DNA of 64,000 bases from a virus (lineage: Duplodnaviria; Heunggongvirae; Uroviricota; Caudoviricetes), in the IMG/VR virus record IMGVR_UViG_2778261035_000005, one strand, 5' to 3'. The notes beneath the pieces are model-generated. The model ran no database searches. It was given only the letters and a program-made list of their open reading frames with translations, and was not told the DNA's origin. A program made the translations under genes and the position numbers. Positions within the stretch are counted from its first letter, which is position 1; each line of letters begins with the position of its first letter. Positions 1 to 61,817 of this stretch are shown in pieces.

Positions 1-1038
1 AAGATGTCCAAGTCTCGCGGCACCTTTATTAAAGCCAGCACCTGGCTGAATCATTTTGACGCTGACAGCCTGCGTTACTACTACACTGCGAAACTCTCTT
101 CGCGCATTGATGATATCGATCTCAACCTGGAGGATTTCGTTCAGCGCGTGAATGCCGATATCGTGAACAAAGTGGTTAACCTGGCCTCCCGTAATGCAGG
201 CTTTATCAACAAGCGTTTTGACGGCGTGCTGGCAAGCGAACTGGCTGACCCGCAACTGTACAAAACCTTTACTGATGCTGCTGAAGTGATTGGTGAAGCA
301 TGGGAAAGCCGCGAATTTGGTAAAGCGATTCGTGAAATCATGGCGCTGGCTGATCTGGCTAACCGCTATGTCGATGAACAGGCTCCGTGGGTGGTGGCGA
401 AGCAGGAAGGGCGCGATGCCGATCTGCAGGCGATTTGCTCTATGGGCATTAACCTGTTCCGCGTGCTGATGACGTACCTGAAACCGGTACTGCCGAAACT
501 GACTGAACGTGCAGAAGCATTCCTGAATACAGAACTGACCTGGGATGGTATCCAGCAACCGCTGCTGGGCCATAAAGTGAATCCGTTCAAGGCACTGTAT
601 AACCGCATCGACATGAAGCAGGTTGAAGCACTGGTGGAAGCATCCAAAGAGGAAGTAAAAGCCGCTGCCGCGCCAGTAACTGGCCCACTGGCAGATGATC
701 CGATTCAGGAAACCATCACCTTTGACGACTTCGCCAAAGTTGACCTGCGCGTGGCTCTGATTGAAAACGCGGAGTTTGTCGAAGGTTCTGACAAACTGCT
801 TCGCCTGACGCTGGATCTCGGTGGCGAAAAACGTAATGTCTTCTCCGGCATTCGTTCCGCTTATCCAGATCCACAGGCACTGATTGGTCGTCACACCATT
901 ATGGTGGCCAACCTGGCTCCGCGTAAAATGCGCTTCGGTATCTCCGAAGGCATGGTGATGGCTGCTGGCCCCGGCGGGAAAGATATCTTCCTGTTAAGCC
1001 CGGATGCTGGTGCTAAACCAGGCCACCAGGTTAAGTAA
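1..1038 (+). CDS. metG: methionyl-tRNA synthetase, C-terminal part (5' end upstream of window)
   Basis: Frame open from window edge; translation starts at class I KMSKS motif and ends ...AKPGHQVK, recognised from memory as enterobacterial MetRS; stop 1036-1038. Confidence 0.93.
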
Positions 1039-12382: not shown

Positions 12383-12404
12383 TAATAAGTAAGTGATTAC
12401 CTAG
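12383..12404. promoter_or_regulatory. TAAGTA-family motif in divergent promoter region
   Basis: taataagtaagtgattacctag between helicase (-) and ParB-like (+) genes. Confidence 0.4.
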
Positions 12405-13102
12405 TGGATTGTAGCAATAAAATGGATGTAAAAATCACGATTTTGCAGGTTGATGTTGCCAACCTTCGCCCGAATACCTGGAACACCAATTCGGTTGGTG
12501 CGCAGAATTTTGAAAAACTGAAAGGTTCTATCGAAAAATTGGGCTTTTTTAAGCCAATTTTGGCTCGTGAACTTGAAGATGGATTTTTTGAAATCCTCGG
12601 CGGCGAACATCGCTGGCGTGCTGCTATTGAGCAAGGAATTTCAACGGTTCCGGTGCTTTCTGTGGGCAAAATTAGCGATGTCGTAGCTAAACAGATGTCA
12701 CTGGTGGACAACGAGCGATACGGTGAAGACGACCAAATCGCATTGCAACGCTTCATTGAAGAAATTCAGTCAGAACTTGACTATCAACTGTCTGAAATCG
12801 CCCCGTATGACGACGAAATCTCGATGGTTTTAGCAAAAGAGGCGGCAATCGACCTTGAAGCACTGGAGGCGTTGTCTCGTGGTAGTGATGAGCCTGTCGA
12901 TACCGACAAACGAGAGAAAACCGAACGTGTGGGTGCGGAACATCAGACCATGCGCTTCAAAGTAACTTTCGATGCGTCAGATCGTGTTGCAGAAACCATA
13001 AAAAACATCATCAAAGAGCAGGCTATTAACACCGGTAATGAAATGGAGAACGCTGGTGAGGCTCTGGTGTGGCTGGTCGACTACTACAAGGAGCGTATGT
13101 AA
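12404..13102 (+). CDS. ParB/Srx-like nuclease-domain protein
   Basis: ParB N-terminal domain signature ...FEILGGEHRWRAA...; GTG 12404 or ATG 12422. Confidence 0.7.
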   Translation: MDCSNKMDVKITILQVDVANLRPNTWNTNSVGAQNFEKLKGSIEKLGFFKPILARELEDGFFEILGGEHRWRAAIEQGISTVPVLSVGKISDVVAKQMSLVDNERYGEDDQIALQRFIEEIQSELDYQLSEIAPYDDEISMVLAKEAAIDLEALEALSRGSDEPVDTDKREKTERVGAEHQTMRFKVTFDASDRVAETIKNIIKEQAINTGNEMENAGEALVWLVDYYKERM

Positions 13103-13770
13103 TGACCAAAAAGTTTGAAATCGTATATCGCGACCCGGCAGATCTTATTCCCTATGAGATGAATGCCAAAAAGCATGATGAACAGCAGATCCGAGATCTA
13201 GCCGCAGCCATTAAAAAGCGCGGATTTGACCAGCCAATTACGGTCGATAAGAACGACGTAATTATTACTGGCCACGGCCGCCGTGAGGCTGCAATTTTTG
13301 CTGGACTTGAGCGCGTACCGGTTATTGTTCGCGATGATCTCAGTGATGACGAGGTTCGTGCGAAGCGCCTTGAAGATAACCGACTTGCCAGCATTGATTA
13401 CGATGCAATTAAGCTACAGAAAGAGCTTGAGTCGCTTGTTCTGGACGATATCGAGGTTTTCGGCTTTGAAGAGCGTGAGTTGAATGTTCTCGTTGGCAGC
13501 ATGACAGAAGAAATGGACACCGACTCGCTAGTTATCGATCTTGGCGAAGAAACTAAACGACAGAAGGATGAACACACCGAGATCAGTCGTGAAGTTGCAG
13601 CGGAAGAAGTACGTGTTGTCGACGTATTGGGCTTTAAAACGCTTCCTGCTGGCTCTGCCATTGTTGTTGGTGATTTGCTTGCCCACATGGAAGAAATGAC
13701 GGGAGAAAGCGGGGTAGACGCATTTGTGGCATATGCGGAGAAGATCTCTTCCGGGGAGATGGCTGCATGA
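13102..13770 (+). CDS. second ParB/Srx-like domain protein
   Basis: ...VIITGHGRREAAIFAG... ParB-like motif; start overlaps previous stop (taATGa). Confidence 0.7.
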   Translation: MTKKFEIVYRDPADLIPYEMNAKKHDEQQIRDLAAAIKKRGFDQPITVDKNDVIITGHGRREAAIFAGLERVPVIVRDDLSDDEVRAKRLEDNRLASIDYDAIKLQKELESLVLDDIEVFGFEERELNVLVGSMTEEMDTDSLVIDLGEETKRQKDEHTEISREVAAEEVRVVDVLGFKTLPAGSAIVVGDLLAHMEEMTGESGVDAFVAYAEKISSGEMAA

Positions 13771-43823: not shown

Positions 43824-44345
43824 TTATTCTTCGAACAATTTTTCGATAGATTTTGTAGGATAGAACAAAGAACGCTCGTTGTTACCAACCAGCTGGATAA
43901 AGCCTAAACTTTTATAAAACGCCTTGGCTTTGTCATTTAACGCCTCAACGAAAAGTCCATGAATGCCTACAGCAAGAGATGCATTGTACACAACGCGCAT
44001 TGCATGTGTTACAAGCATTGAGCCAAATCCTTGACCTTGAAGGGACTTGTCCAAAGCCAGCCTACCCAAAGTAACACTTGGAACATTCCGATAAGGTACC
44101 TTCTTTTGCTGGCTTCTTGAAGGTAAGGACTCCTTTTCAAAGCAGCTACCTGACAAAGTGTAATACCCTAACACTTTTGGTCTGCCTTCTTTCGTGCAAA
44201 GCACATAAGCGCGAAGAATTTTTCCCTCATGCTGCCTTTTTAAGTGGTTGGTTAAAAAGGCATTTAGTGATTCTTCACCGCAATCAAAACCATTCAAATC
44301 ATAATCTTTCTCTCCAGAGAAAATTTCTATCTTTATATTATCCAC
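43824..44345 (-). CDS. GNAT-family acetyltransferase toxin (TacT/AtaT-like)
   Basis: GNAT motif GRLALDKSLQGQGFGSMLV; immediately downstream of DUF1778-type antitoxin. Confidence 0.75.
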   Translation of the reverse strand: MDNIKIEIFSGEKDYDLNGFDCGEESLNAFLTNHLKRQHEGKILRAYVLCTKEGRPKVLGYYTLSGSCFEKESLPSRSQQKKVPYRNVPSVTLGRLALDKSLQGQGFGSMLVTHAMRVVYNASLAVGIHGLFVEALNDKAKAFYKSLGFIQLVGNNERSLFYPTKSIEKLFEE

Positions 44346-44352
44346 GAGTAAA

Positions 44353-44622
44353 CTACTCCATGCTTTTCAGACGATCAGCAGCTCGTTTCAGCTTGTCGTT
44401 CGGTGCCGGAGGATTGCTTATAGCGTCCATAACCAGATTCCAGGATTCTTCATTCAGAACTAGTCTACGGTGTTGCTCTATAACTTTCACGGCACGTTCA
44501 GATGCACTGCTAACCATAAACTGAGTAATGCTCTGGTTAGACATTGCGGCAGCTTCCTCGATGATGCTTTTATCGTCATCGGTTAATCTCAAATCGATGC
44601 GCTGCTTTTTTAGTGCTGACAT
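44353..44622 (-). CDS. DUF1778/RHH antitoxin (TacA/AtaR-like)
   Basis: MSALKKQRIDLRLTDDDKSIIEEAA... characteristic N-terminus; antitoxin-first order. Confidence 0.75.
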   Translation of the reverse strand: MSALKKQRIDLRLTDDDKSIIEEAAAMSNQSITQFMVSSASERAVKVIEQHRRLVLNEESWNLVMDAISNPPAPNDKLKRAADRLKSME

Positions 44623-44890
44623 GTATTCCTCCTGATGGCCGTGATGTAGGAAGGCCATCAATCTCCTCTGTTCAAACTGAGTTTTCGACTCAAAAATTAC
44701 TTTAAAAGGCTATAGCCCATTACGTGTGCATTATCAAATTGTGTACGGCATATCACCGTACTTGTAATATAGAGGTCATTGTTACTTTTTTCAACAGACA
44801 AATACAAGCTATGATTGCCAATTGTTAATCACAACCTACCATTTAACCTTTACACCGCAGCCGTAGGCATTTAGGCTATATCACATATAA

Positions 44891-44906
44891 GAAAACAAGT
44901 TGTTTC
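44891..44906 (+). promoter_or_regulatory. operator palindrome GAAAACAAGTTGTTTC upstream of parA
   Basis: Same palindrome family as left arm. Confidence 0.5.
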
Positions 44907-44940
44907 AGACAATAATAATAGACGCAAAGGGAACTCTCCA

Positions 44941-45609
44941 ATGACCAAGATCTTTGTGGTTGGCGGCACAAAGGGCGGGCCTGGCAAATCCACCGTTGCC
45001 CAGCAAATTGCCGTTTGCCTGAAAGTCAAAAAGAAGAAGAAGGTTTATATCACTGATATAGATATTCAGCGCACGACAACAAGCTGGTGTGAAGACCGTC
45101 GACAGAACGAAGACCTTGAGCTGATTCCTTTTGCATACGTTCAGGATGACATCATTAAGCACCTAAAATCGCTTCAGGGTAGAGCTGAGTTTGTAGTGGT
45201 AGATGCTGGTGGCTTTGACTCCGAAATTCAGCGACAAGCGATGCTGATGGCCGACGTTATCATTATCCCGCTTCGTCCTAAGCGTCGTGATTTGAAATCT
45301 CTGCGTGACATCGATCCTATTATCGACAATGTTCGTAATGTAAACGATAAAGTGAAGGTCCGCGCGGTCATGAACCAGTGCCCGGCTTTGCCATCACAAG
45401 TGTCTCGCATTCTGGCGGCTAAAGAGATTGTCGAGACGTTTGGCATCGAGTCTGCGCCAGTCAATCTATATAACCGCAACGTCTACGATGATGCGGAAGA
45501 GTCTGGTCGTTCTATCTTTGAAATGACCGGTAGCGAGCGCGACAAAAAGGCGGAAGCCGAGTTTGAAGAATTTGTAGATTATCTGTTGAGTCTGGAGGAA
45601 GAAGAATAA
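44941..45609 (+). CDS. parA: ParA-family partition ATPase
   Basis: Deviant Walker A GGTKGGPGKST; 222 aa. Confidence 0.85.
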   Translation: MTKIFVVGGTKGGPGKSTVAQQIAVCLKVKKKKKVYITDIDIQRTTTSWCEDRRQNEDLELIPFAYVQDDIIKHLKSLQGRAEFVVVDAGGFDSEIQRQAMLMADVIIIPLRPKRRDLKSLRDIDPIIDNVRNVNDKVKVRAVMNQCPALPSQVSRILAAKEIVETFGIESAPVNLYNRNVYDDAEESGRSIFEMTGSERDKKAEAEFEEFVDYLLSLEEEE

Positions 45610-45968
45610 TGTCCATGAAAATGGGTGACCTAGCAAAGCGCAAAGAGCCTGATGCACCGGCCAAGAACACAACTCCTTTGCGCCAACCAGTCAGACCACA
45701 GGGACGCCCGACTCGTGGCAAAGAGAAAATTAAAAGCCGCACAATGTCACTGGAAGACGAATACTTCGAACTGCTGGAGATGATGAAGTTCATCCCTCGC
45801 TTCGAGAAATTCACCCGCTCTGATGTGATTCGTGCTGCTATTTTCCATCTTGCGGAGAAGACACCGCAGGAAATCGAGGACATCGTAAAGCTGAACGAGG
45901 CGATCACAGCTGCCGATGTCACGATGCGTACCGATGAAATTAAACGCGAGTTGATGAAGAAAGGTTAA
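45609..45968 (+). CDS. RHH centromere-binding protein (ParG-like)
   Basis: Basic disordered N-terminus + C-terminal RHH-like segment; ATGA overlap with parA. Confidence 0.55.
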   Translation: MSMKMGDLAKRKEPDAPAKNTTPLRQPVRPQGRPTRGKEKIKSRTMSLEDEYFELLEMMKFIPRFEKFTRSDVIRAAIFHLAEKTPQEIEDIVKLNEAITAADVTMRTDEIKRELMKKG

Positions 45969-45971
45969 TAA

Positions 45972-45997
45972 TGTGGGCTGTCTAGCCCACATTATTT
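45972..45997 (+). terminator. terminator after partition operon
   Basis: aatgtgggc-tgtcta-gcccacatt then TTTT. Confidence 0.6.
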
Positions 45998-49573: not shown

Positions 49574-50755
49574 ATGAGCCTTTATGTTATATCAACATTT
49601 AGGTTGGTAACAATATTGCCTGTTAAAAGTGGAATTATCGTGAGCGAGCTGAAAGAGTTAATTACCGAATTAGATTTTGAACAATGGTTGGACACTGAAG
49701 GTATCGTTTATCGACGTGGAGGCGTGAGTACTCGCGGTCGTGAAGTGAATATCAAGGAGTGTCCGGTATGCGGCAGCTCCAACTGGAAGGTATATTTCAA
49801 TCTGACCAGTGGCGTCGGTAAATGCTTCGCTGGTGATCATCCCGAAGAGATTCAGTTCAATAAGCTGGTCTTCCTCAAGCACTACAGCGGCAAATCACGA
49901 CGACAGTTCGAGGAATATGTGCAGAACGCCCTTCTTTCCCAGGGGTGGGCACCAAAGAAAGAAGAGCTAGTGCTTGCAAGCACAGTCGAGTTAGAGGGGC
50001 CAGTTGCACTCCCTCGTCATTACGAACTTCCTATAGATGGCCGTCTTCCAGACTATCTGGTTGAACGAAATATATCGCCTGAAATGGCAAAGTATTTTGA
50101 CCTACGATACTGCGTCGAAGGTAAGCACGCCTATGTAGATCCGTATACAGATCAGGTTAAAGGACAGATATTCGATATGCGAATACTGATACCGGTTTAC
50201 GATCTGGATGGGGTAATGAAGACATTTCAGGGACGAGACATTACCGGTACAGCAGAACGCCGCTACCTCTTTCCTATGCAGCTTCCAGCTTCAGGTAAGT
50301 TTCTCTACAACGGCTATAATGCAGTCGGCAAACAGACTGTAGTTGTCTGTGAGGGGGCGTTCGATGTTATGGGGGTTAAACGAGCTATTTTTGACGAAGA
50401 AACATTACGTGATTACGTGGAACCAATAGGAACGTTCGGGATGCATCTATCTGGTAACACCACTCAGGATGCAGAAGATCAGTTAGGCGCGTTCCTGACG
50501 CTCAAGGCGCGTGGGTTACGTAATGTGATCATGATGTGGGATAGTGAAAAGCAAGCTATACGAAACACTATGGCCGCAGCCAGGCGACTGACCAGTATCG
50601 GTCTTAATGTGAAAATTGCATGTTTGGGCGAGGAAGGACTCGACCCCGGCGATGCGACCCCGGGGCAGATTATCAAAGCCTACTATTGCGCAAAACCTTA
50701 CTCACGACAGCTTGAACTTTTAAGCAAGGTAAAAGGCATAGCAGCATTAGTTTGA
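49574..50755 (+). CDS. DnaG-type primase (zinc ribbon + TOPRIM)
   Basis: CPVCGSSNW...CFAGDH zinc ribbon; TOPRIM VVVCEGAFD and MMWDSEKQ; start uncertain (49502 GTG / 49574 ATG). Confidence 0.75.
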   Translation: MSLYVISTFRLVTILPVKSGIIVSELKELITELDFEQWLDTEGIVYRRGGVSTRGREVNIKECPVCGSSNWKVYFNLTSGVGKCFAGDHPEEIQFNKLVFLKHYSGKSRRQFEEYVQNALLSQGWAPKKEELVLASTVELEGPVALPRHYELPIDGRLPDYLVERNISPEMAKYFDLRYCVEGKHAYVDPYTDQVKGQIFDMRILIPVYDLDGVMKTFQGRDITGTAERRYLFPMQLPASGKFLYNGYNAVGKQTVVVCEGAFDVMGVKRAIFDEETLRDYVEPIGTFGMHLSGNTTQDAEDQLGAFLTLKARGLRNVIMMWDSEKQAIRNTMAAARRLTSIGLNVKIACLGEEGLDPGDATPGQIIKAYYCAKPYSRQLELLSKVKGIAALV

Positions 50756-51892
50756 ACCAGTATTAGTCACGTACACATTGACCGAAAATGATTTAACTTC
50801 TGTGTTGAAGTTGTCAGTCATTACCGCGAGGTAGGCATTCTTGGTATCTCTGAATTGCTTCAGTATGATTTGAACGTTATCGGTGCAAACAAACGAGGTA
50901 GCCAGATTGCCTCCTTTCTCTGAAAAATCCTTCAGGAAGGTGCAGTCAACTTTGCCATCATTAGCGGTGAAGGTAGCATCATCACCCTGCCAGGTAAATG
51001 TAGCGTTAACGCCCTTATCAATGGATTTAGCAATAAGTCGCTGGGTGGCGGATTTTGTTTTGGCTTTGGAAGCCGGCGCTCGATATTTGCCGCTTTCTTT
51101 CAGTTCTGCAATGTAATCACAGCCATTTTTATCTTCTTTATCACAAGCAGCCTGATAAAGCTCAGCTGCTTTTTTATAGTCTTTTTTAACCCCTTCACCA
51201 TACTCATACATAATGCCAAGATTTGTCATGGCATCGGCGTTTCCGAGTTCAGCAGCTTTTTTATACCACTTAATTGCTTCGGCATCGTTGCGTTTAACAC
51301 CTAAACCGTCATCGTATAAGGTGCCTAATGCGAACATGCCATCTGAACTACCTTGATCCGCCGCTTTTTTGTAATAAGTAAAAGCTTTTTTATAACTCTT
51401 TTGTACACCTTTACCATATTGGTAATACGCACCAAGAAGGTAGCTAGCTTTAACATACCCGGCATCAGAGGCTAGATTGAAGTATTTAATGGCGAGCGCA
51501 TGATCTACTTTACCAAGCATCCCCTTTTGATAAATAGCACCAAGATTGTTATAGGCTCTACCTTCACGAGCATCTCCCGCAAGTTTGTAGTACTCAACTG
51601 CTTTATTTAAGTCTTTATCTACACCCTCGCCAAATGTGTACATAACCCCAAGTGCATAATATGCTACTTTGTCTCCCTTTTCTGCAGCGAGATCAATCCA
51701 CTTCTTGGCCTCAACTACATCCTTATCAAAACCATTGATACCATCAAAATAATTTGTCCCTAACTCACTTTGTGCTGCGGTATCCCCTGCGGTAGCGGCT
51801 TCTATCAGCGTTTGTTTATTGTCTGCGTTAACGAATCCAGAGCTAAAAAGCAAAGTTAATGCCAGCAACGATGAAGATTTTATGTATTTCAT
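50747..51892 (-). CDS. secreted Sel1-repeat protein
   Basis: Signal peptide MKYIKSSSLLALTLLFSSGFVNA, then ~8 Sel1-type repeats and a ~110-aa C-terminal domain. Confidence 0.8.
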   Translation of the reverse strand: MKYIKSSSLLALTLLFSSGFVNADNKQTLIEAATAGDTAAQSELGTNYFDGINGFDKDVVEAKKWIDLAAEKGDKVAYYALGVMYTFGEGVDKDLNKAVEYYKLAGDAREGRAYNNLGAIYQKGMLGKVDHALAIKYFNLASDAGYVKASYLLGAYYQYGKGVQKSYKKAFTYYKKAADQGSSDGMFALGTLYDDGLGVKRNDAEAIKWYKKAAELGNADAMTNLGIMYEYGEGVKKDYKKAAELYQAACDKEDKNGCDYIAELKESGKYRAPASKAKTKSATQRLIAKSIDKGVNATFTWQGDDATFTANDGKVDCTFLKDFSEKGGNLATSFVCTDNVQIILKQFRDTKNAYLAVMTDNFNTEVKSFSVNVYVTNTGSN

Positions 51893-52125
51893 ATTTTTTG
51901 TTCTGTTGATATAGGATGAACAGTTTAGACGCGGCAAGTGTCAAGTGTGCGAAAAATGGTACTTAAATTTAGTTAATATGTCAGCTTTGTTGATTTAGTT
52001 TATGGTCGGTAAAGTTACTAGGAAACTAATAACCATAAGAAATAGTACGTCATTTAATTATTGTGGCACTGCTCGTGTTTTGATTAACTAATACCTGCGA
52101 TAAATATAAATAAAGGGAAGCCAAC

Positions 52126-55474: not shown

Positions 55475-55673
55475 ACGGGAGAAGGAAACACTTTATGAAA
55501 TCAGTAAGTGGCCGGAGTTCCCTGAGTACTGGAAGCCTAAAACGCGGGCTAAGTTAGAGCGGTTAGGGTTGGTTGCAAACGTTTCTGAAACGAGGGGGTC
55601 GGCCAACTACCAGTTAACTGATAAAGGGAAAGTATTGCTACAGCAATTAGTAGAATCAGGAGCGTTAAAATGA
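55458..55673 (+). CDS. small protein (71 aa)
   Basis: Good RBS aaggag before ATG 55458. Confidence 0.5.
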   Translation: MIVLSKREKETLYEISKWPEFPEYWKPKTRAKLERLGLVANVSETRGSANYQLTDKGKVLLQQLVESGALK

Positions 55674-55822
55674 TTCCATACATCTCATTAGCTTTTATGG
55701 GTGGCTTTCTTATCGGCTTCGGCATCTGTCGTGATTTAATTAAGCAGGAACTTAAAACCAAAACACTGTGCATCGGAAAGCGTGTGTATCGGGTAGTTCA
55801 TGAAACAAAGGTTAGAAAATGA
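55670..55822 (+). CDS. small single-TM protein (50 aa)
   Basis: MIPYISLAFMGGFLIGFGIC...; begins with the 13-bp repeat AATGATTCCATAC. Confidence 0.4.
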   Translation: MIPYISLAFMGGFLIGFGICRDLIKQELKTKTLCIGKRVYRVVHETKVRK

Positions 55823-56140: not shown

Positions 56141-56682
56141 TTTTATGTATAAGATGACTTTGTTTTCGTTGAGACGCGACTGTTTGAACTTAAATACAAG
56201 TGCAAACGAAGAAGTCTATCTGGCAGTAGCCTAATAAGCCAAACACCAGCGAGGTCAGTTTCCAGCCTCGTTACCGAAATGGGACACACTGAGCGAGTGT
56301 GATTGCAGAACGCAGGAGGGAACATGAATGTTCCCTCCGATGAAGTAACAGAATGGGCGGTCAGTATATTTTCAACTCATATACGACTCCCGGATTCTTA
56401 TCCAATGACCGCCCATCCTGTTACGTCATTTTGTTCAATTATGTCGTTTATACTGGGTTAAAAAGCGGCGACGTAGCCCGGCTGGTATGGTTAGCCAGCA
56501 CACAACGTTGAGGCCATTACATTTTTATCAATTCTAAGGTTCTATTCACAGAGATACCGGCGAGCGTTGATATGTAACATGTTGGGCAAACATTCAATCG
56601 GAGTAGTGGCCTCAACGTTGTGAAGACAGGATAGTTGTGTAGGTTTAACCACTGTTGCCATTGGTGCCTGTTTTCACAACAA

Positions 56683-56772
56683 ATGATTCCATACATCACA
56701 TTGTATAAATTACAAAGTAAGTGCAGTCCTCAGAAACATCATCTACTTAAAGATTTTGCCTTCTACTATTGA
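56683..56772 (+). pseudogene. truncated duplicate of the 5' end of the 55670 small-ORF
   Basis: AATGATTCCATAC repeated; frame closes after 29 codons. Confidence 0.3.
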
Positions 56773-57525: not shown

Positions 57526-58806
57526 TTAATTAAAACCGAATGAATCAAGTTCTGCTTTTAATTTATCGACCATTTTTTCAACTTCAACCACAATTTCGCC
57601 AATCACCTTTTCTTTGTGTTGATTAGAGCTAAGTTCAAAATAGGCGTTATATAACGCATAACGAGACAGAAAATTTCTAATCTCATTAGCGGGTCTAATG
57701 GTGTAGCCATCGGTTAACACGATATCGGTCTGTCTAGAGTGCTTCTCGTTGAGTTTTATTAGCCGCTTTATCTGTTTTTCATCCTTGAGCACTATCACTT
57801 TGTTAGCTGCAATTTCAAGCTCCCAGCCGACAAAATAACGCAGCGTAGAATTTAATTTAGCCACTTCCTCGGCTGCAATTTCCATTTTCAGCTCAATGTA
57901 GTTTCGCATATGCATAGGTAGGTCATTAAATCTTTGCAGCAAATGTTGTCGGCAGGGGTTGTTGTAAGACCAAAGAACTGCAAACGTAAGCCTATGATAA
58001 CAGCTTATCGCATTGGTATTACAGGCCGAATCACCAACAATCATGCGATCAACATAAAACTCTACGTCTTTTTGGTATTCTTTATTGAATATATCAGCGG
58101 CATAGGTGTCCAGGTAATGAACTTTAGATATTGCATCTTCAAAGAAAAGTTCATTTTCGAAGAAGTTGTATTTGTTCAGGAGACGATAAAGTTTCTTTGC
58201 GTCGTAGGTTTTGCTATTGTCGACATTAAGACCAAAAATAGCAATCAGCAGACTTACTTTTGGACTAATGCTGTTGCGCAGTTGTTCTATGTAAGATCTC
58301 TTTTCACTATCCGCAGATGACGGCAGATAGAAGTCTTTATCTACATAATTTAGAATTAAAATAATGTGGTTAACATACTTAATATAAACAGGGTTTTTTG
58401 TTGCATAGTAATAAACGCCCTTGACGACTTTTATATTCAATTTCAAATTGTACTGACTATCATCCAGTAAGGTTTTGTTAACATCCTCAAGTAATTTATT
58501 ATGCTGTTCAAGTAATATGCCGTACCATTCCTTAAAAGAAGATTTTTTCATTTCAAGAAGCGAAGCCGCCGTCAGCCTGGTCGCTCTCATTGCCGCCTTT
58601 GCACTATGCCTTGCCTCATAAGCGGCCCATGCTGTGGCTAAAAAGGCAAGTGAAGTAGCAAGCGTACCTATAACCTCTACGTTTTCCTTGACGGTATCCC
58701 AGAAAATAATCATCACTGTCCCAAGTATGAGGATTAACAAAACAGGCATTTTATCAGTGTCTTTGGTTAATTTTGAAACTGAATGATACCTAATCGACCA
58801 TACCAT
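57526..58806 (-). CDS. AT-rich gene: membrane-anchored protein (426 aa) of unknown function
   Basis: Two N-terminal TM helices then ~330-aa soluble domain; no motif recognised; composition visibly AT-rich. Confidence 0.6.
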   Translation of the reverse strand: MVWSIRYHSVSKLTKDTDKMPVLLILILGTVMIIFWDTVKENVEVIGTLATSLAFLATAWAAYEARHSAKAAMRATRLTAASLLEMKKSSFKEWYGILLEQHNKLLEDVNKTLLDDSQYNLKLNIKVVKGVYYYATKNPVYIKYVNHIILILNYVDKDFYLPSSADSEKRSYIEQLRNSISPKVSLLIAIFGLNVDNSKTYDAKKLYRLLNKYNFFENELFFEDAISKVHYLDTYAADIFNKEYQKDVEFYVDRMIVGDSACNTNAISCYHRLTFAVLWSYNNPCRQHLLQRFNDLPMHMRNYIELKMEIAAEEVAKLNSTLRYFVGWELEIAANKVIVLKDEKQIKRLIKLNEKHSRQTDIVLTDGYTIRPANEIRNFLSRYALYNAYFELSSNQHKEKVIGEIVVEVEKMVDKLKAELDSFGFN

Positions 58807-60065: not shown

Positions 60066-60201
60066 CTGTCTCGAATCCCTCTTTATTAGTATAAGTTGTC
60101 TTATTGTACCCTACCAAACGTTTATATGCATTGTTATGTATTATTTTGATTTTCAATATTACCTCCTAGAACGAAGGGTAGATTTCAAAAAACGCACCCT
60201 C

Positions 60202-60234
60202 AATGATTCCATACCTACTATGTATGGAATCATT
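60202..60234. repeat. inverted repeat AATGATTCCATA-N9-TATGGAATCATT upstream of integrase (candidate recombination site)
   Basis: 12-bp perfect arms; left arm is third copy of AATGATTCCATAC (also at 55669 and 56682). Confidence 0.5.
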
Positions 60235-60332
60235 ACTGAAAATGAGTTACTTTTACTCTTGATCCTATAAGAATCTATGCCTAATATACTGTTTACTTAT
60301 ACAGTGCATCGGCGTAACTCGGTGATTGTCAT

Positions 60333-61436
60333 ATGAAAAATAGCTTTGACAGAGCACGCGCTGCGGAGAACACCTCAAAAGAGGCGATTGAGTATCTCGA
60401 AAGAGCATCTCAAATGCAGGCCGTTATGATCTCCCAGGTCAGCAATGACATGAGATTCTCGGACGCATTCATGTTATTCACTCGCTTATCTCTGCTGATA
60501 ACAAGACGTCGGCCAGAGATCGCTGTTCATTGTATTTTGATACATGTTTTGCCGCACATTGCCGATGTAAAAGTAAGTGATATTAATAGGTTCATGGTGA
60601 ACCAACTGGTCAACCCACTAATACTGGATGGCAAAATTGTTATGGGTCGCCGCGTTTTCTCTCTGATGAAGCAGTTCCTCAGCTGGTGCGCCTTCCAGGG
60701 GATGATCGACGTGTCACCGTTAAACGATATGTCACTTAACAAAGTTGCCGGTGGCGCAAAGCCCACACCTCGCGAGCGGAAGCTAACCGACGCAGAGGTA
60801 TGGGTGTTCTGGAATATATGGGACTACTTCAATGTGTGTGCTGGTACAAAATGGGCGGCCAGGCTATGTCTTGTATCCGCAAGACGACCTGACGAAGTAC
60901 TGCGGGCTAAAAAAAGTGAGTTCAACCTCCAGCGTGGGGTTTGGAATCAAGGCAAGAGAAACAAATCAGCCCGTGAGCATTCTCTGCCTTTAAGCACATT
61001 AATGCGCACATGCATTGAAGAGTTATTCGAATATGGTAAAGGCAGCCAGTGGCTTGTGCCTTCGAATAAAAAAATCGGGAAAGATCTTCCGATGTCTAAA
61101 GTGGCAATAGCCCAGGCATTACGCCGTATCCTGGAACGACCAGAACTGATGGAGCTTGAGCCATTTACACCACGAGATTTGCGTCGTACTGCGCGTAGTT
61201 ACTTCCCAGCATTAGGCATAAGCCAGGAGGTATCACGTAAAATCATGAACCACAGTCTTGAGGGGATAGATCGGGTCTACGACCGGCACGATTATATGGA
61301 CGAGATGCGAGACGCCTTAGAAAGTTTCTCGACGTACATCGCATCAATCGTAGAGCAACCGGATTTAGACGAAATTGACCACAAATTCAAGGGAGATCGT
61401 CTATCGACAGAGCTTATTCGTGTAAATTTTTCATAG
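60333..61436 (+). CDS. tyrosine integrase / site-specific recombinase
   Basis: C-terminal catalytic motifs ...PRDLRRTARS... and NHSLEGIDRVYDRHDY (H-x-x-R ... Y). Confidence 0.75.
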   Translation: MKNSFDRARAAENTSKEAIEYLERASQMQAVMISQVSNDMRFSDAFMLFTRLSLLITRRRPEIAVHCILIHVLPHIADVKVSDINRFMVNQLVNPLILDGKIVMGRRVFSLMKQFLSWCAFQGMIDVSPLNDMSLNKVAGGAKPTPRERKLTDAEVWVFWNIWDYFNVCAGTKWAARLCLVSARRPDEVLRAKKSEFNLQRGVWNQGKRNKSAREHSLPLSTLMRTCIEELFEYGKGSQWLVPSNKKIGKDLPMSKVAIAQALRRILERPELMELEPFTPRDLRRTARSYFPALGISQEVSRKIMNHSLEGIDRVYDRHDYMDEMRDALESFSTYIASIVEQPDLDEIDHKFKGDRLSTELIRVNFS

Positions 61437-61817
61437 AGACTTTATGGCCTCAACAACCTTTTGTGATGCGCCTTTCTCTTTACCGAATCGCTCGTTATAT
61501 GCAGCAAGAACCTGTTTTTCGTCCTCGTTAAGAGGAGCAGTGCCTTCTTTGTATAAAAATGCTGCGAGTTCGGGTTGGCGTTCTTCCAGCACCATCATCA
61601 TAAGACGACTTGGCTCAATACCCAGTGCCAGCGCCAGCGGACGAACCTTATCGATAGGCAAAGGAATTTTGCCGCTTTTAATTAAAGAAAGGTTGTTGGC
61701 GTTTTTATACCCAATTGTTTTGGCTATCTGGGCCTGGCTCATAGGTGAGGATTCAATCAACCCTGCGATAAAAGCAGCGTAGCGACTTTCTATAAATTCA
61801 ATCTTGTTGTCAGACAT
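61431..61817 (-). CDS. XRE-family HTH repressor (CI/Cro-like)
   Basis: HTH MSQAQIAKTIGYKNANNLSLIKSGK; divergent from downstream rightward genes. Confidence 0.7.
   Translation of the reverse strand: MSDNKIEFIESRYAAFIAGLIESSPMSQAQIAKTIGYKNANNLSLIKSGKIPLPIDKVRPLALALGIEPSRLMMMVLEERQPELAAFLYKEGTAPLNEDEKQVLAAYNERFGKEKGASQKVVEAIKSL

Follow-up and report, generated by a model that had tools for sequence, protein, structure and literature searches.

The SSU5/pHCM2 supergroup of phage-plasmids was described by Pfeifer et al. (2021; PMC7969092). For Escherichia phage Cyrano (pLF82, OV696614), a phage-plasmid of this type, a copy number of about 5.5 per cell, virion production and induction by ciprofloxacin have been reported (PMC9928086). 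The absence of integrases is described as typical of phage-plasmids (PMC12977533). For the individual loci considered here, the systems used for comparison were the ParF–ParG–parH partition system of TP228, sopAB of the phage-plasmid N15 and Cre/loxP of P1.

We analysed a stretch of 64,000 nucleotides of a tailed virus (IMG/VR record IMGVR_UViG_2778261035_000005), called the window below; positions are those of the window unless stated otherwise. The first-pass annotation had described a plasmid-type partition pair and an integrase in one element joined to the chromosomal metG gene. The explanation that we favour, with a probability of about 0.85, is that the window comes from an SSU5/pHCM2-type phage-plasmid with a type Ib par cassette, metG as cargo and a Cre-like recombinase.

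Identity of the element

Across 64 kb, the window differed from pWP4-S18-ESBL-07_2, a circular 110-kb E. coli plasmid, by one indel in a T-run and seven substitutions. It traverses the origin of that record, and the RepB initiator gene of the plasmid lies outside it (plasmid positions 74163–75377). A near-identical closed circular plasmid with its own RepB initiator shows that the element is extrachromosomal. The nucleotide identity of the window was 97–98% with the Escherichia phages Cyrano and CMS-2020a, two independent records with which it is colinear, about 82% with Salmonella phage SSU5 and 79% with Klebsiella SSU5-like phages. By similarity and synteny, with the same gene order as recognised members, it belongs to the SSU5/pHCM2 supergroup. 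The window covers about 58% of a circular E. coli phage-plasmid of about 110 kb, of the Cyrano/pLF82 lineage; the earlier remark that it recalls large enterobacterial phage-plasmids was borne out by this whole-genome comparison. The element is a siphovirus prophage maintained as a low-copy plasmid. It is already known, and its ParA gene already serves as a marker of the family.

The likeness to Cyrano is close (about 97% nucleotide identity, identical gene order). Both carry lambda-like tail genes, lysis genes, TacAT, parA with the 119-aa ORF, dnaB, primase, ligase, tRNAs, grxA, int, the repressor, cobT and apbC-metG. The two differ by small indels alone: present in the window but not in Cyrano are a Sel1-repeat gene (50747–51937), an AbiC-like ORF of 426 aa (57526–58806) and a stretch of about 210 bp that separates tRNA-Thr from tRNA-Ser. 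The apbC-metG pair is carried by the E. coli lineage, and there was no sign of it in SSU5 among the search matches.

A search of 5,426 complete E. coli genomes placed the par region at 265 plasmid places and the int region at 254, and neither was found at any chromosomal place. A 33-bp site next to int was likewise absent from the chromosomes; the 252 E. coli genomes that contain it all have it on plasmids. The features discussed below are collected in Table 1.

Table 1. Positions of the features of the window and the evidence on which each was assigned.
Feature	Position	Strand	Evidence
metG, 3' half	1–1038	+	Pfam tRNA-synt_1g, Anticodon_3, tRNA_bind; full gene 677 aa
GNAT toxin, TacT/KacT type	43824–44345	-	Pfam GNAT families; KacT in the Cyrano annotation
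TacA-type antitoxin	44353–44661	-	Pfam TacA1, E 8.6e-26
par leader, candidate promoter/operator/centromere	44831–44940	+	Conservation, co-variation with partner
parA, type Ib (ParF-like) partition ATPase, 222 aa	44941–45609	+	ORF, Pfam, NCBIfam, PDB, PHROG
Partner, candidate centromere-binding adaptor, 119 aa	45609–45968	+	Family alignments, PHROG 5111, sub-threshold RHH_1
Terminator-like hairpin, perfect 13-bp inverted repeat, 4-nt loop	45967–45996		Directly after partner stop codon
lox-like site, AATGATTCCATAC-CTACTAT-GTATGGAATCATT	60202–60234		99 nt upstream of int ATG
LexA (SOS) box, TACTGTTTACTTATACAGTG	60287–60306		int promoter region
Tyrosine recombinase ('integrase'), 367 aa	60333–61436	+	Core-binding and catalytic domains
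HTH regulator, convergent with int	61431–61817	-	Pfam HTH_19 (weak); PHROG 8, E 1.3e-11

The tyrosine recombinase and its lox-like site

The gene first annotated as a tyrosine integrase does encode a tyrosine recombinase. Its product matched Pfam Phage_integrase above the cut-off (E 6e-10), Phage_int_M weakly and the PHROG 1 integrase profile (E 1e-46), the last aligned from profile position 143, and no arm-binding domain was detected with Pfam or PHROG. The catalytic motifs of tyrosine recombinases, read by eye, are present as SARRPDE, RDLRRT and NHS...RVY (NHS-x7-Y); in RDLRRT, an Arg replaces the first His. Neither Cre nor any other enzyme of solved structure was detectably similar to the protein in sequence, and no residue-by-residue alignment was possible. 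Copies 85–87% identical to it were found on contigs of 58–109 kb from Yersinia, Kluyvera and Buttiauxella and on one Kluyvera contig of 11.8 kb; among the matches listed, it was at most 28% identical to the integrases of integrative phages.

Upstream of the gene lies a palindrome whose two inverted 13-bp arms match perfectly and enclose an asymmetric 7-bp spacer, an arrangement of which zero are expected by chance. The 13-7-13 layout with a non-palindromic spacer is that of a simple site of the Cre/Flp type, in which recombinase-binding arms of about 11–13 bp flank an asymmetric spacer of 6–8 bp. Its arms are invariant and its spacer varies across genera and lineages: the exact arms were present in 80 IMG/VR contigs with at least 12 spacer variants. 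A homology break with most E. coli relatives at 60184–60202 was considered as a trace of recombination at the lox-like site and rejected, since the boundary of the insert is 18 bp away on its left side. Points against the reading as a recombination site are that the 33-bp palindrome could be the operator of a repressor and that one arm has two extra exact copies, at 55669 and 56682, for which this reading gives no account.

In the promoter region of int there is a LexA box. In the Yersinia, Kluyvera and Buttiauxella loci CTG-N10-CAG is conserved and the inner bases vary. The pattern CTGT-N8-ACAG matches once in 64 kb, which equals the chance expectation, so the argument for the box rests on its position and conservation. 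What speaks against a role in dimer resolution is that induction functions are more typically controlled by LexA than this housekeeping task is. The counterpart in Cyrano of the HTH regulator convergent with int is annotated as 'putative repressor'.

Most likely, the recombinase is controlled by LexA and acts in a Cre-like manner on the 13-7-13 site, to resolve multimers and/or to cyclise incoming DNA; chromosomal insertion of the element is most likely not its function. The likeness to P1 Cre/loxP, which serves that phage-plasmid in cyclisation and dimer resolution, lies in a tyrosine recombinase of similar size (Cre has 343 aa) that is borne by a phage-plasmid and adjoins perfect 13-bp arms with an asymmetric spacer. 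It differs from the P1 system in that the spacer is 7 bp and not 8, that the two enzymes are not detectably similar in sequence, and that a LexA box stands in the int promoter; its activity is a prediction. Since the enzyme is conserved in the phage-plasmid lineage and has its own lox-like site adjoining, its presence does not imply chromosomal integration. The tension seen at first between a partition system on the one hand and an integrase and an adjoining host gene on the other does not arise, metG being no chromosomal flank.

It is unlikely that the enzyme is a true integrase which, in some hosts or under some conditions (for example after SOS induction), inserts the phage-plasmid at a chromosomal attB, the 33-bp palindrome being the core of attP. 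Its membership of the phage-integrase family and its 22–28% identity to the integrases of Gifsy-1, Stx and HK phages would agree with such a role, and the LexA box points to expression during induction, the pattern of excision functions. However, a search of the E. coli chromosomes found neither the element nor a site of at least about 20 bp; an attB shorter than about 20 bp or restricted to other host species would escape it. Furthermore, the arm-binding domain was not detected and no Xis-like gene was found near int, all close homologues are on contigs of at most 109 kb, and perfectly symmetric 13-bp arms are typical of simple sites of the lox/FRT type, not of attP cores.

Decidedly improbable is a wider role, in which the SOS-controlled recombinase and its 13-7-13 site would form a platform for cargo exchange in SSU5-type phage-plasmids, beyond the resolution of dimers. 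The DNA directly to the left of the lox-like site is hypervariable (40 different 25-mers in 80 contigs), and the lineage of the window carries an 885-bp insert 18 bp from the site, encoding an ORF of 184 aa; the positional counterpart of this ORF in Cyrano is a moron reported at 723-fold over background. In addition, two further exact copies of one arm, at 55669 and 56682, bracket a variable tRNA and accessory region, and under this reading they may be scars of recombination with secondary sites. If true, the phage-plasmid would possess a device for capturing genes that resembles an integron.

The partition cassette

Two co-oriented ORFs were located exactly where the first-pass annotation had placed them, and the view that they form a plasmid-type, type Ib-like partition module, with a genuine ATPase of the ParA/MinD type, held. 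The 222-aa ParA has the deviant Walker A motif KGGPGKST at residues 11–18; its P-loop begins at residue 6 and the protein is without the N-terminal DNA-binding (HTH) domain of type Ia, in keeping with type Ib ATPases, which have about 200–300 aa. It matched Pfam MipZ, AAA_31 and CbiA, all above the cut-offs and with no further Pfam domain, and PHROG 164 'ParA-like partition protein' (E 4e-51). The best solved structures were those of TP228 ParF (4dzz) and ParA (5u1g), matched over residues 9–199 with an E-value of 1.2e-10. Alignment to the NCBIfam ParA_partition model NF041546 was full-length (E 1.9e-33), and the score of 115.7 bits is below the equivalog cut-off of 180 bits, so that by NCBI's rule the protein is to be classed as a relative of this family and not as an equivalog. 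PADLOC made no defence-system assignment for ParA or for the 119-aa protein.

A small partner gene follows immediately 3' in the parA operon, as in type Ib systems. Its ATG overlaps the parA stop codon (TAATG), with a GGAGGA Shine-Dalgarno sequence 10 nt upstream, and because of this overlap the two genes are probably translationally coupled. The operon is expressed in Cyrano lysogens, where the partner gene, CYRAN_29, was measured at 9-fold over background (PMC9928086). The gene was found on 797 PLSDB plasmids, mostly of 105–120 kb and non-mobilizable, and in the 30 of these records that were listed it was nearly always under or beside an annotated ATPase gene. It is labelled 'hypothetical' in RefSeq.

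The partner protein belongs to PHROG 5111, 'unknown function' (E 1.5e-79). Exhaustive profile searches of 1.84 billion proteins showed a closed family of about 18 cluster representatives, none of them with a Pfam annotation, which makes annotation transfer impossible. From the N-terminus, the protein consists of a conserved MGDLAKR peptide, a variable linker, a basic stretch, a putative ribbon-helix-helix (RHH) core and two extra C-terminal helices; an AF2 monomer had helices at residues 48–59, 70–82, 86–97 and 101–118. In the family alignment, S47, E49, R70, D72 and R75 are invariant and S71 nearly so. RHH proteins of the CopG/ParG/omega type are dimers with a beta-alpha-alpha fold, and their profile comprises a strand and helices A and B, the latter with a [ST]-x-[SN] cap. 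The assignment of an RHH partner made at first stood in part. The window protein itself had no Pfam match even at E ≤ 10, whereas 11 of 16 diverged homologues matched Pfam RHH_1 with E-values of 0.005–0.12, all below its cut-off of 20.5 bits and all in the same register (residues about 49–85 on profile positions 3–35). There was also a weak match to the NCBIfam aCcr1 family (E 2e-4), whose members are RHH proteins. Fold searches with the AF2 monomer were uninformative, and sequence and profile searches against PDB chains gave no match. An hhalign comparison of the family profile with approximate ParG and CopG sequences also gave no match, to which we attach no weight either way. An RHH core at about residues 43–83 is probable from these alignments, and the protein is best read as the adaptor, of RHH type, that binds the centromere in a type Ib partition system.

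The DNA around the two genes was also examined. A block of homology shared with Klebsiella relatives runs from 44831 to 45970 and coincides with the boundaries of the cassette, its right end being the end of the partner gene. SSU5, pJN2-26 and Cyrano share the 110-nt leader almost without change. Its 5' part (about 44831–44866) changes together with the partner protein: KpPF25 p2, whose partner is 50.8% and whose ParA is 75% identical, has this part replaced. The 3' part contains a -10-like element and, at 44888–44905, a copy of a palindromic motif found genome-wide. Repeat searches around par revealed no iteron array typical of type Ib centromeres. The whole invariant leader was at first taken for the centromere. 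Its 3' half then proved to be a promoter-proximal motif common to at least 11 operons, which also occurs in a pMT1-like locus, and the motif was therefore rejected as a par-specific site; the leader, with its co-varying 5' part, is kept as a candidate only. Downstream, the hairpin is predicted to close the two-gene operon in the manner of a terminator; the scan called it on the minus strand, and on the plus strand its tail reads TTTAATT.

Compared with TP228, the locus has a small Walker-type ParA for which ParF is the best solved-structure match, a small partner, encoded downstream, that combines a flexible N-terminal tail with a probable RHH core, and a likely cis site upstream of the operon. 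It differs in that the partner is not detectably similar to ParG in sequence, is longer and carries the two extra helices, and in that there is no ParH-like array of tetramer boxes near par.

On the favoured explanation, positions 44831–45996 are a self-contained two-gene type Ib partition cassette. The ParF-like ParA would bind the nucleoid in its ATP form, and the 119-aa adaptor would bind the centromere, probably in the leader of the cassette itself, through a dimeric RHH core. The conserved N-terminal peptide of the adaptor would touch ParA and stimulate ATP hydrolysis, leading to the separation of sister plasmids, and binding of the adaptor to DNA would also autoregulate the operon. An addiction module adjoins par, with its GNAT toxin transcribed divergently from it; the TacAT pair would add post-segregational killing. 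In RefSeq, the antitoxin CDS is shorter (270 nt, 44353–44622).

We consider it very unlikely that the 119-aa ORF is not the partner of ParA, whether because ParB_N proteins acting on dispersed palindromes take that part or because the ORF is a toxin of the RelE/ParE type. The window does encode two proteins with a ParB_N domain (12404–13770), and the palindrome AAACAA-N-TTGTTT is dispersed in it, with 11 copies, one of them in the par leader; the centromere sites of N15 are scattered in a similar way. As in N15 sopAB, a phage-plasmid here carries a partition ATPase of the Walker type and a scattered palindromic motif, also near phage genes. The ATPase of the window is of type Ib, however, and SopA of type Ia, and the scattered motif resembles a promoter-proximal operator: it always lies about 30–55 nt 5' of start codons, just after -10-like hexamers. 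The motif also occurs in the Y. pestis pMT1-like locus, although Yersinia is absent among the named genera with plasmids encoding the 119-aa protein, and it thus appears to be retained in a relative without this par system. Moreover, the ParB_N genes are 30 kb away, beside genes for an ABC ATPase and terminase, while the parA stop codon overlaps with the 119-aa gene, whose end is also that of the shared homology block. The toxin was suggested by the Cyrano annotation of CYRAN_29 as 'RelE/ParE putative toxin', and we rejected it: neither the window protein nor 28 relatives had such a Pfam match even at E ≤ 10, and none was found in NCBIfam or PADLOC.

The plasmid copy of metG

The first 1038 nucleotides of the window matched the plasmid record NZ_AP022089.1 at 100%. 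They are about 94% identical to chromosomal metG, and this homology stops at position 1039. In the circular 110-kb plasmid, metG is full-length and forms with apbC a 3.3-kb pair with plasmid genes on both sides; the homology of the pair with the E. coli chromosome extends from stop codon to stop codon only, with 99% amino-acid identity. The plasmid metG was found at 250 plasmid places. Together with apbC it is captured cargo inside a circular plasmid and not a chromosomal flank. The pair was taken up from an enterobacterial chromosome, and strong purifying selection maintains metG.

The phage-plasmid carries its own copy of metG, and therefore there is no junction with the chromosome, contrary to the first description of an element that abuts a host gene. 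Non-contiguity of the metG and phage segments, proposed at first as the refutation of that description, was the wrong test; the segments are contiguous, on a plasmid. The chromosomal flanks and att junctions of an integrated prophage were not found, with no chromosomal place in the genomes searched and homology limited to apbC-metG. That the element is integrated or integrable beside chromosomal metG, as a dual-lifestyle or integrated phage-plasmid, or that the record is an assembly mosaic of chromosome and phage, might be suggested by the similarity of the metG segment to the chromosomal gene, by the gene of the phage-integrase family and by the rare chromosomal regions derived from phage-plasmids in the literature (PMC12977533), but it is scarcely tenable and largely refuted by the plasmid genes that flank apbC-metG in a closed circle, by the limits of the chromosomal homology, by the number of plasmids that hold this metG, by the absence of par, int and the 33-bp site from all chromosomes searched, and by the colinearity with Cyrano and CMS-2020a.

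Significance

About 5% of complete E. coli genomes contain a phage-plasmid of the family described here, of which the window is an ordinary representative. For annotators, metG matches in such contigs are plasmid cargo and not chromosome, and a previously unannotated protein, the putative adaptor of the par cassette, gains a functional label. The conserved recombinase, together with its lox-like site and LexA box, is a testable candidate for a Cre/lox-type system.

Identity of the element

The window belongs to a known, common, extrachromosomal phage-plasmid that carries metG as captured cargo. Three window queries (25-kb and 6-kb) matched the Escherichia phages Cyrano and CMS-2020a at about 96–98% identity, the Salmonella phage SSU5 at about 82% and Klebsiella SSU5-like phages at about 79%, always with the same gene order, and the resemblance to enterobacterial phage-plasmids suggested in the first-pass annotation was right. 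Among complete E. coli genomes, the par region was 100% identical to the circular 110,167-bp plasmid pWP4-S18-ESBL-07_2. A base-by-base comparison showed that the whole window corresponds to positions 106271–110167 and then 1–60102 of this plasmid, the sole differences being one T-run indel and seven substitutions. The window thus crosses the arbitrary origin of the plasmid record, as a circular molecule assembled independently should. A RepB-family initiator is also encoded on the plasmid, outside the window. Cyrano (pLF82) is described as a phage-plasmid of about 5.5 copies per cell that makes virions, and ciprofloxacin induces it about 39-fold (PMC9928086). No larger set of related phage-plasmids is known than the SSU5 supergroup (PMC7969092).

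The window differs from Cyrano as follows: downstream of the primase gene it has an inserted Sel1-repeat gene together with a 137-aa ORF (w50747–52539; w, window position); about 210 bp separate tRNA-Thr from tRNA-Ser (w57042–57254); and beside a phoH remnant lies a 426-aa ORF (w57526–58806) whose AbiC-like Pfam match is weak. The minus strand of w9479–10081 encodes a FljA-like 'repressor of phase-1 flagellin' (Pfam PF03614, E 2.5e-84), which could change host flagellin expression; its Cyrano counterpart is annotated merely as 'transcriptional regulator'. Just upstream of the terminase genes, w12404–15319 encodes two tandem ParB_N-domain proteins, an ABC-type ATPase that matched mad3 and mad8 weakly in PADLOC, and a 296-aa ORF; packaging, defence or partition are candidate roles. 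As w39001–64000 matched 194 phage records by megablast (80–95% identity; many Escherichia, Enterobacter and Campylobacter phages), it must contain a short, widely shared segment, perhaps a tail-fibre piece or tRNA genes.

Features of the element (window positions)
Feature	Position	Strand	Description
metG, 3' half	1–1038		full gene, 677 aa
Palindromic motif, AGAAAACAA-N-TTGTTT	1123, 1169, 3968, 4452, 6105, 6590, 15708, 15733, 44888, 48115, 62348		18-mers
parA	44941–45609	+	ATG-initiated ORF, 222 aa
Partner gene	45609–45968	+	ORF, 119 aa; GGAGGA 10 nt upstream
Hairpin	45967–45996		perfect, 13 bp; 3' of partner stop codon
Arm-bearing 22-mers	55668–55689, 56681–56702	+	at start of short ORFs beginning MIPY
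Lox-like site, AATGATTCCATAC-CTACTAT-GTATGGAATCATT	60202–60234		perfect 13-bp arms, asymmetric 7-bp spacer; 99 nt upstream of int ATG
LexA box, TACTGTTTACTTATACAGTG	60287–60306		good match; between lox-like site and int ATG

Origin of metG and tests of integration

The element had been described as joined to chromosomal metG, and this was not borne out. The full gene is plasmid-borne, at 105275–107308 of pWP4-S18-ESBL-07_2, and is preceded by divergent apbC. In BLAST, the apbC–metG segment (NZ_AP022089.1 104021–107309) gave a single 3.3-kb alignment with a K-12-type chromosome (89% identity), which runs from the apbC stop codon to that of metG. Chromosomal metG matched w1–1039 only, at about 93–94%, in 5,426 of 5,426 E. 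coli genomes; metG was also matched at 250 plasmid places, the best of which extended past w1039. In the E. coli branch of the phage-plasmid family, the chromosomal gene pair apbC–metG has been taken up as cargo. Plasmid and chromosomal MetG are 99% identical in protein and about 94% in nucleotides, which indicates strong purifying selection on the plasmid-borne second MetRS copy, present in about 5% of E. coli genomes.

The combination of a partition pair, an integrase and a host junction had been read as a dual lifestyle or an integrated phage-plasmid. For this element, the reading is not supported, because the par region (265 places in 263 of the 5,426 E. coli genomes) and the int region (254 places, 252 genomes) were all on plasmids, a 47-nt probe across the int-adjacent site matched plasmids only (word size 11, E ≤ 10), recombinase homologues of 85–87% identity in other genera lay on contigs of 58–109 kb and one of 11.8 kb, and chromosomal phage-plasmid remnants are rare and probably not integrase-mediated (PMC12977533). 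For S. [quoted passage not shown] With an extrachromosomal element and metG as cargo, the apparent paradox dissolves.

The partition pair

The claim of a plasmid-type ParA was confirmed. The protein has a deviant Walker A box (KGGPGKST, residues 11–18), matches Pfam MipZ, AAA_31 and CbiA, all above cut-offs, and matches PHROG 164 'ParA-like partition protein' with E 4e-51; the score for NCBIfam ParA_partition (E 1.9e-33, 115.7 bits) is under the equivalog cut-off of 180. The closest solved structures, TP228 ParF (4dzz) and ParA (5u1g), matched near full length with E 1.2e-10. By its length of 222 aa and its P-loop at the extreme N-terminus, the protein is a type Ib ParA.

The start codon of the partner gene, which encodes the candidate centromere-binding adaptor, shares its A with the TAA stop codon of parA. 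The Pfam search matched the partner to no family, and PHROG 5111, which takes it in, is labelled 'unknown function'. Its family is very small and closed: an exhaustive profile search gave 18 hits among 1.84 billion cluster representatives, and a word-indexed search gave 55 among 5.8 billion proteins, all of the 55 lacking a Pfam domain. The gene is common: tblastn located it on 797 PLSDB plasmids, mostly of 105–120 kb and non-mobilizable, from Klebsiella, Escherichia, Enterobacter, Salmonella and others, and among the 30 PLSDB records listed an annotated ATPase gene almost always overlaps or adjoins it.

Five segments can be told apart in the family alignment. The N-terminal peptide is conserved (consensus hydrophobic-G-D/G-L-x-K-R/K) and is followed by a linker that varies, a stretch of basic residues, the block SRTMSLEDEY..L......FTRSDVIRAAI and two further helices. 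The fourth segment resembles a ribbon-helix-helix (RHH) domain: strand, helix A, then helix B with its T/S-x-S cap. In AF2 monomer models, residues 1–45 are disordered and helices span 48–59, 70–82, 86–97 and 101–118. These models gave no informative result in fold searches, which is unsurprising because the RHH fold exists as a dimer only. The best direct evidence is that Pfam RHH_1 was matched by 11 of 16 diverged relatives, below the 20.5-bit cut-off (E 0.005–0.12) and in a constant register (residues about 49–85 against profile positions 3–35 of 39). The partner also matched the NCBIfam aCcr1 family (E 2e-4), whose members we take to be RHH proteins. The RHH label given earlier is only partly confirmed, being favoured by the relatives and by aCcr1 but not by a Pfam match of the partner itself, and we consider the partner a probable RHH protein (probability roughly 0.7).

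Its Cyrano homologue CYRAN_29, transcribed in lysogens 9-fold above local background (PMC9928086), is annotated as 'RelE/ParE putative toxin' (OV696614; PMC9928086). Pfam, NCBIfam and PADLOC gave no support for such a toxin; the gene seems to be a partition adaptor that was mis-annotated.

The par leader and a dispersed palindromic motif

Distant Klebsiella relatives in the phage collection have only w44831–45970 in common with the window (megablast), at about 80% identity; this block consists of the 110-nt leader, parA and the partner gene. The leader hardly varies among the window, SSU5, pJN2-26 and Cyrano, and upstream of it their DNA is unrelated; a TacT/TacA (KacAT) toxin–antitoxin pair (Pfam) runs divergently from the leader. 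In the Klebsiella plasmid KpPF25 p2 (ParA 75% and partner 50.8% identical to those of the window), the 3' half of the leader, holding TAAGAAAACAAGTTGTTT, is kept and the 5' half (about w44831–44866) is swapped for other sequence. The 5' half co-varies with the partner protein. Because repeat searches revealed no iteron array near par, we only infer that the 5' half may be the par centromere/operator.

With up to 3 mismatches, TAAGAAAACAAGTTGTTT occurs in 11 copies in the window (0.13 expected). Each copy precedes a start codon by about 30–55 nt, and most copies have a GATAAT-like hexamer about 10 nt further upstream. The downstream genes include parA, dnaB, cobT and the gene preceding the terminase large subunit. 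At least three further exact copies of the core palindrome are present in the plasmid outside the window. The motif was rejected as the par centromere, being promoter-proximal at 11 sites and present in one copy in a Y. pestis pMT1-like locus; it is probably an operator/leader element of a genome-wide regulator of the phage-plasmid.

The recombinase and a lox-like site

The recombinase matched the catalytic domain of Pfam Phage_integrase and, weakly, a central domain; no arm-binding domain was matched in Pfam or PHROG, and no excisionase-like gene was found near int. The lox-like site upstream of int has the architecture of lox/FRT-type simple sites. Its arms are invariant and its spacer differs in Yersinia/Kluyvera and Buttiauxella loci, and at least 12 spacer variants were present in 80 IMG/VR contigs with exact arms. 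The LexA box keeps its CTG-N10-CAG frame across genera, with variable inner bases. From these sequence features we give even odds to a Cre-like recombinase that would act on the plasmid-borne site in multimer resolution and/or cyclisation and would be SOS-tuned.

Alternatively, the 13-7-13 palindrome may be a repressor operator. One arm recurs exactly at w55669 and w56682, inside a shared 22-mer, AAATGATTCCATACATC[T/A]CATT, and both copies are also kept in Cyrano and pSCU-306-2; about 0.002 exact arm 13-mers are expected by chance. These copies could be operator half-sites or recombination scars. The palindrome might also be an attP core used in hosts outside the present sample; outside the SSU5-like group, the recombinase relatives among the phage records listed were integrases of integrative phages, at 22–30% identity.

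An 885-bp insert relative to pSCU-306-2 (w59299–60183) ends 18 bp from the lox-like site. It encodes a 184-aa ORF (PHROG 28788) whose positional counterpart, CYRAN_43, is expressed more strongly in lysogens than any other Cyrano gene (723-fold above background; PMC9928086).

The remaining interest lies in the functional assignment of the partner and in the candidate lox-like system.
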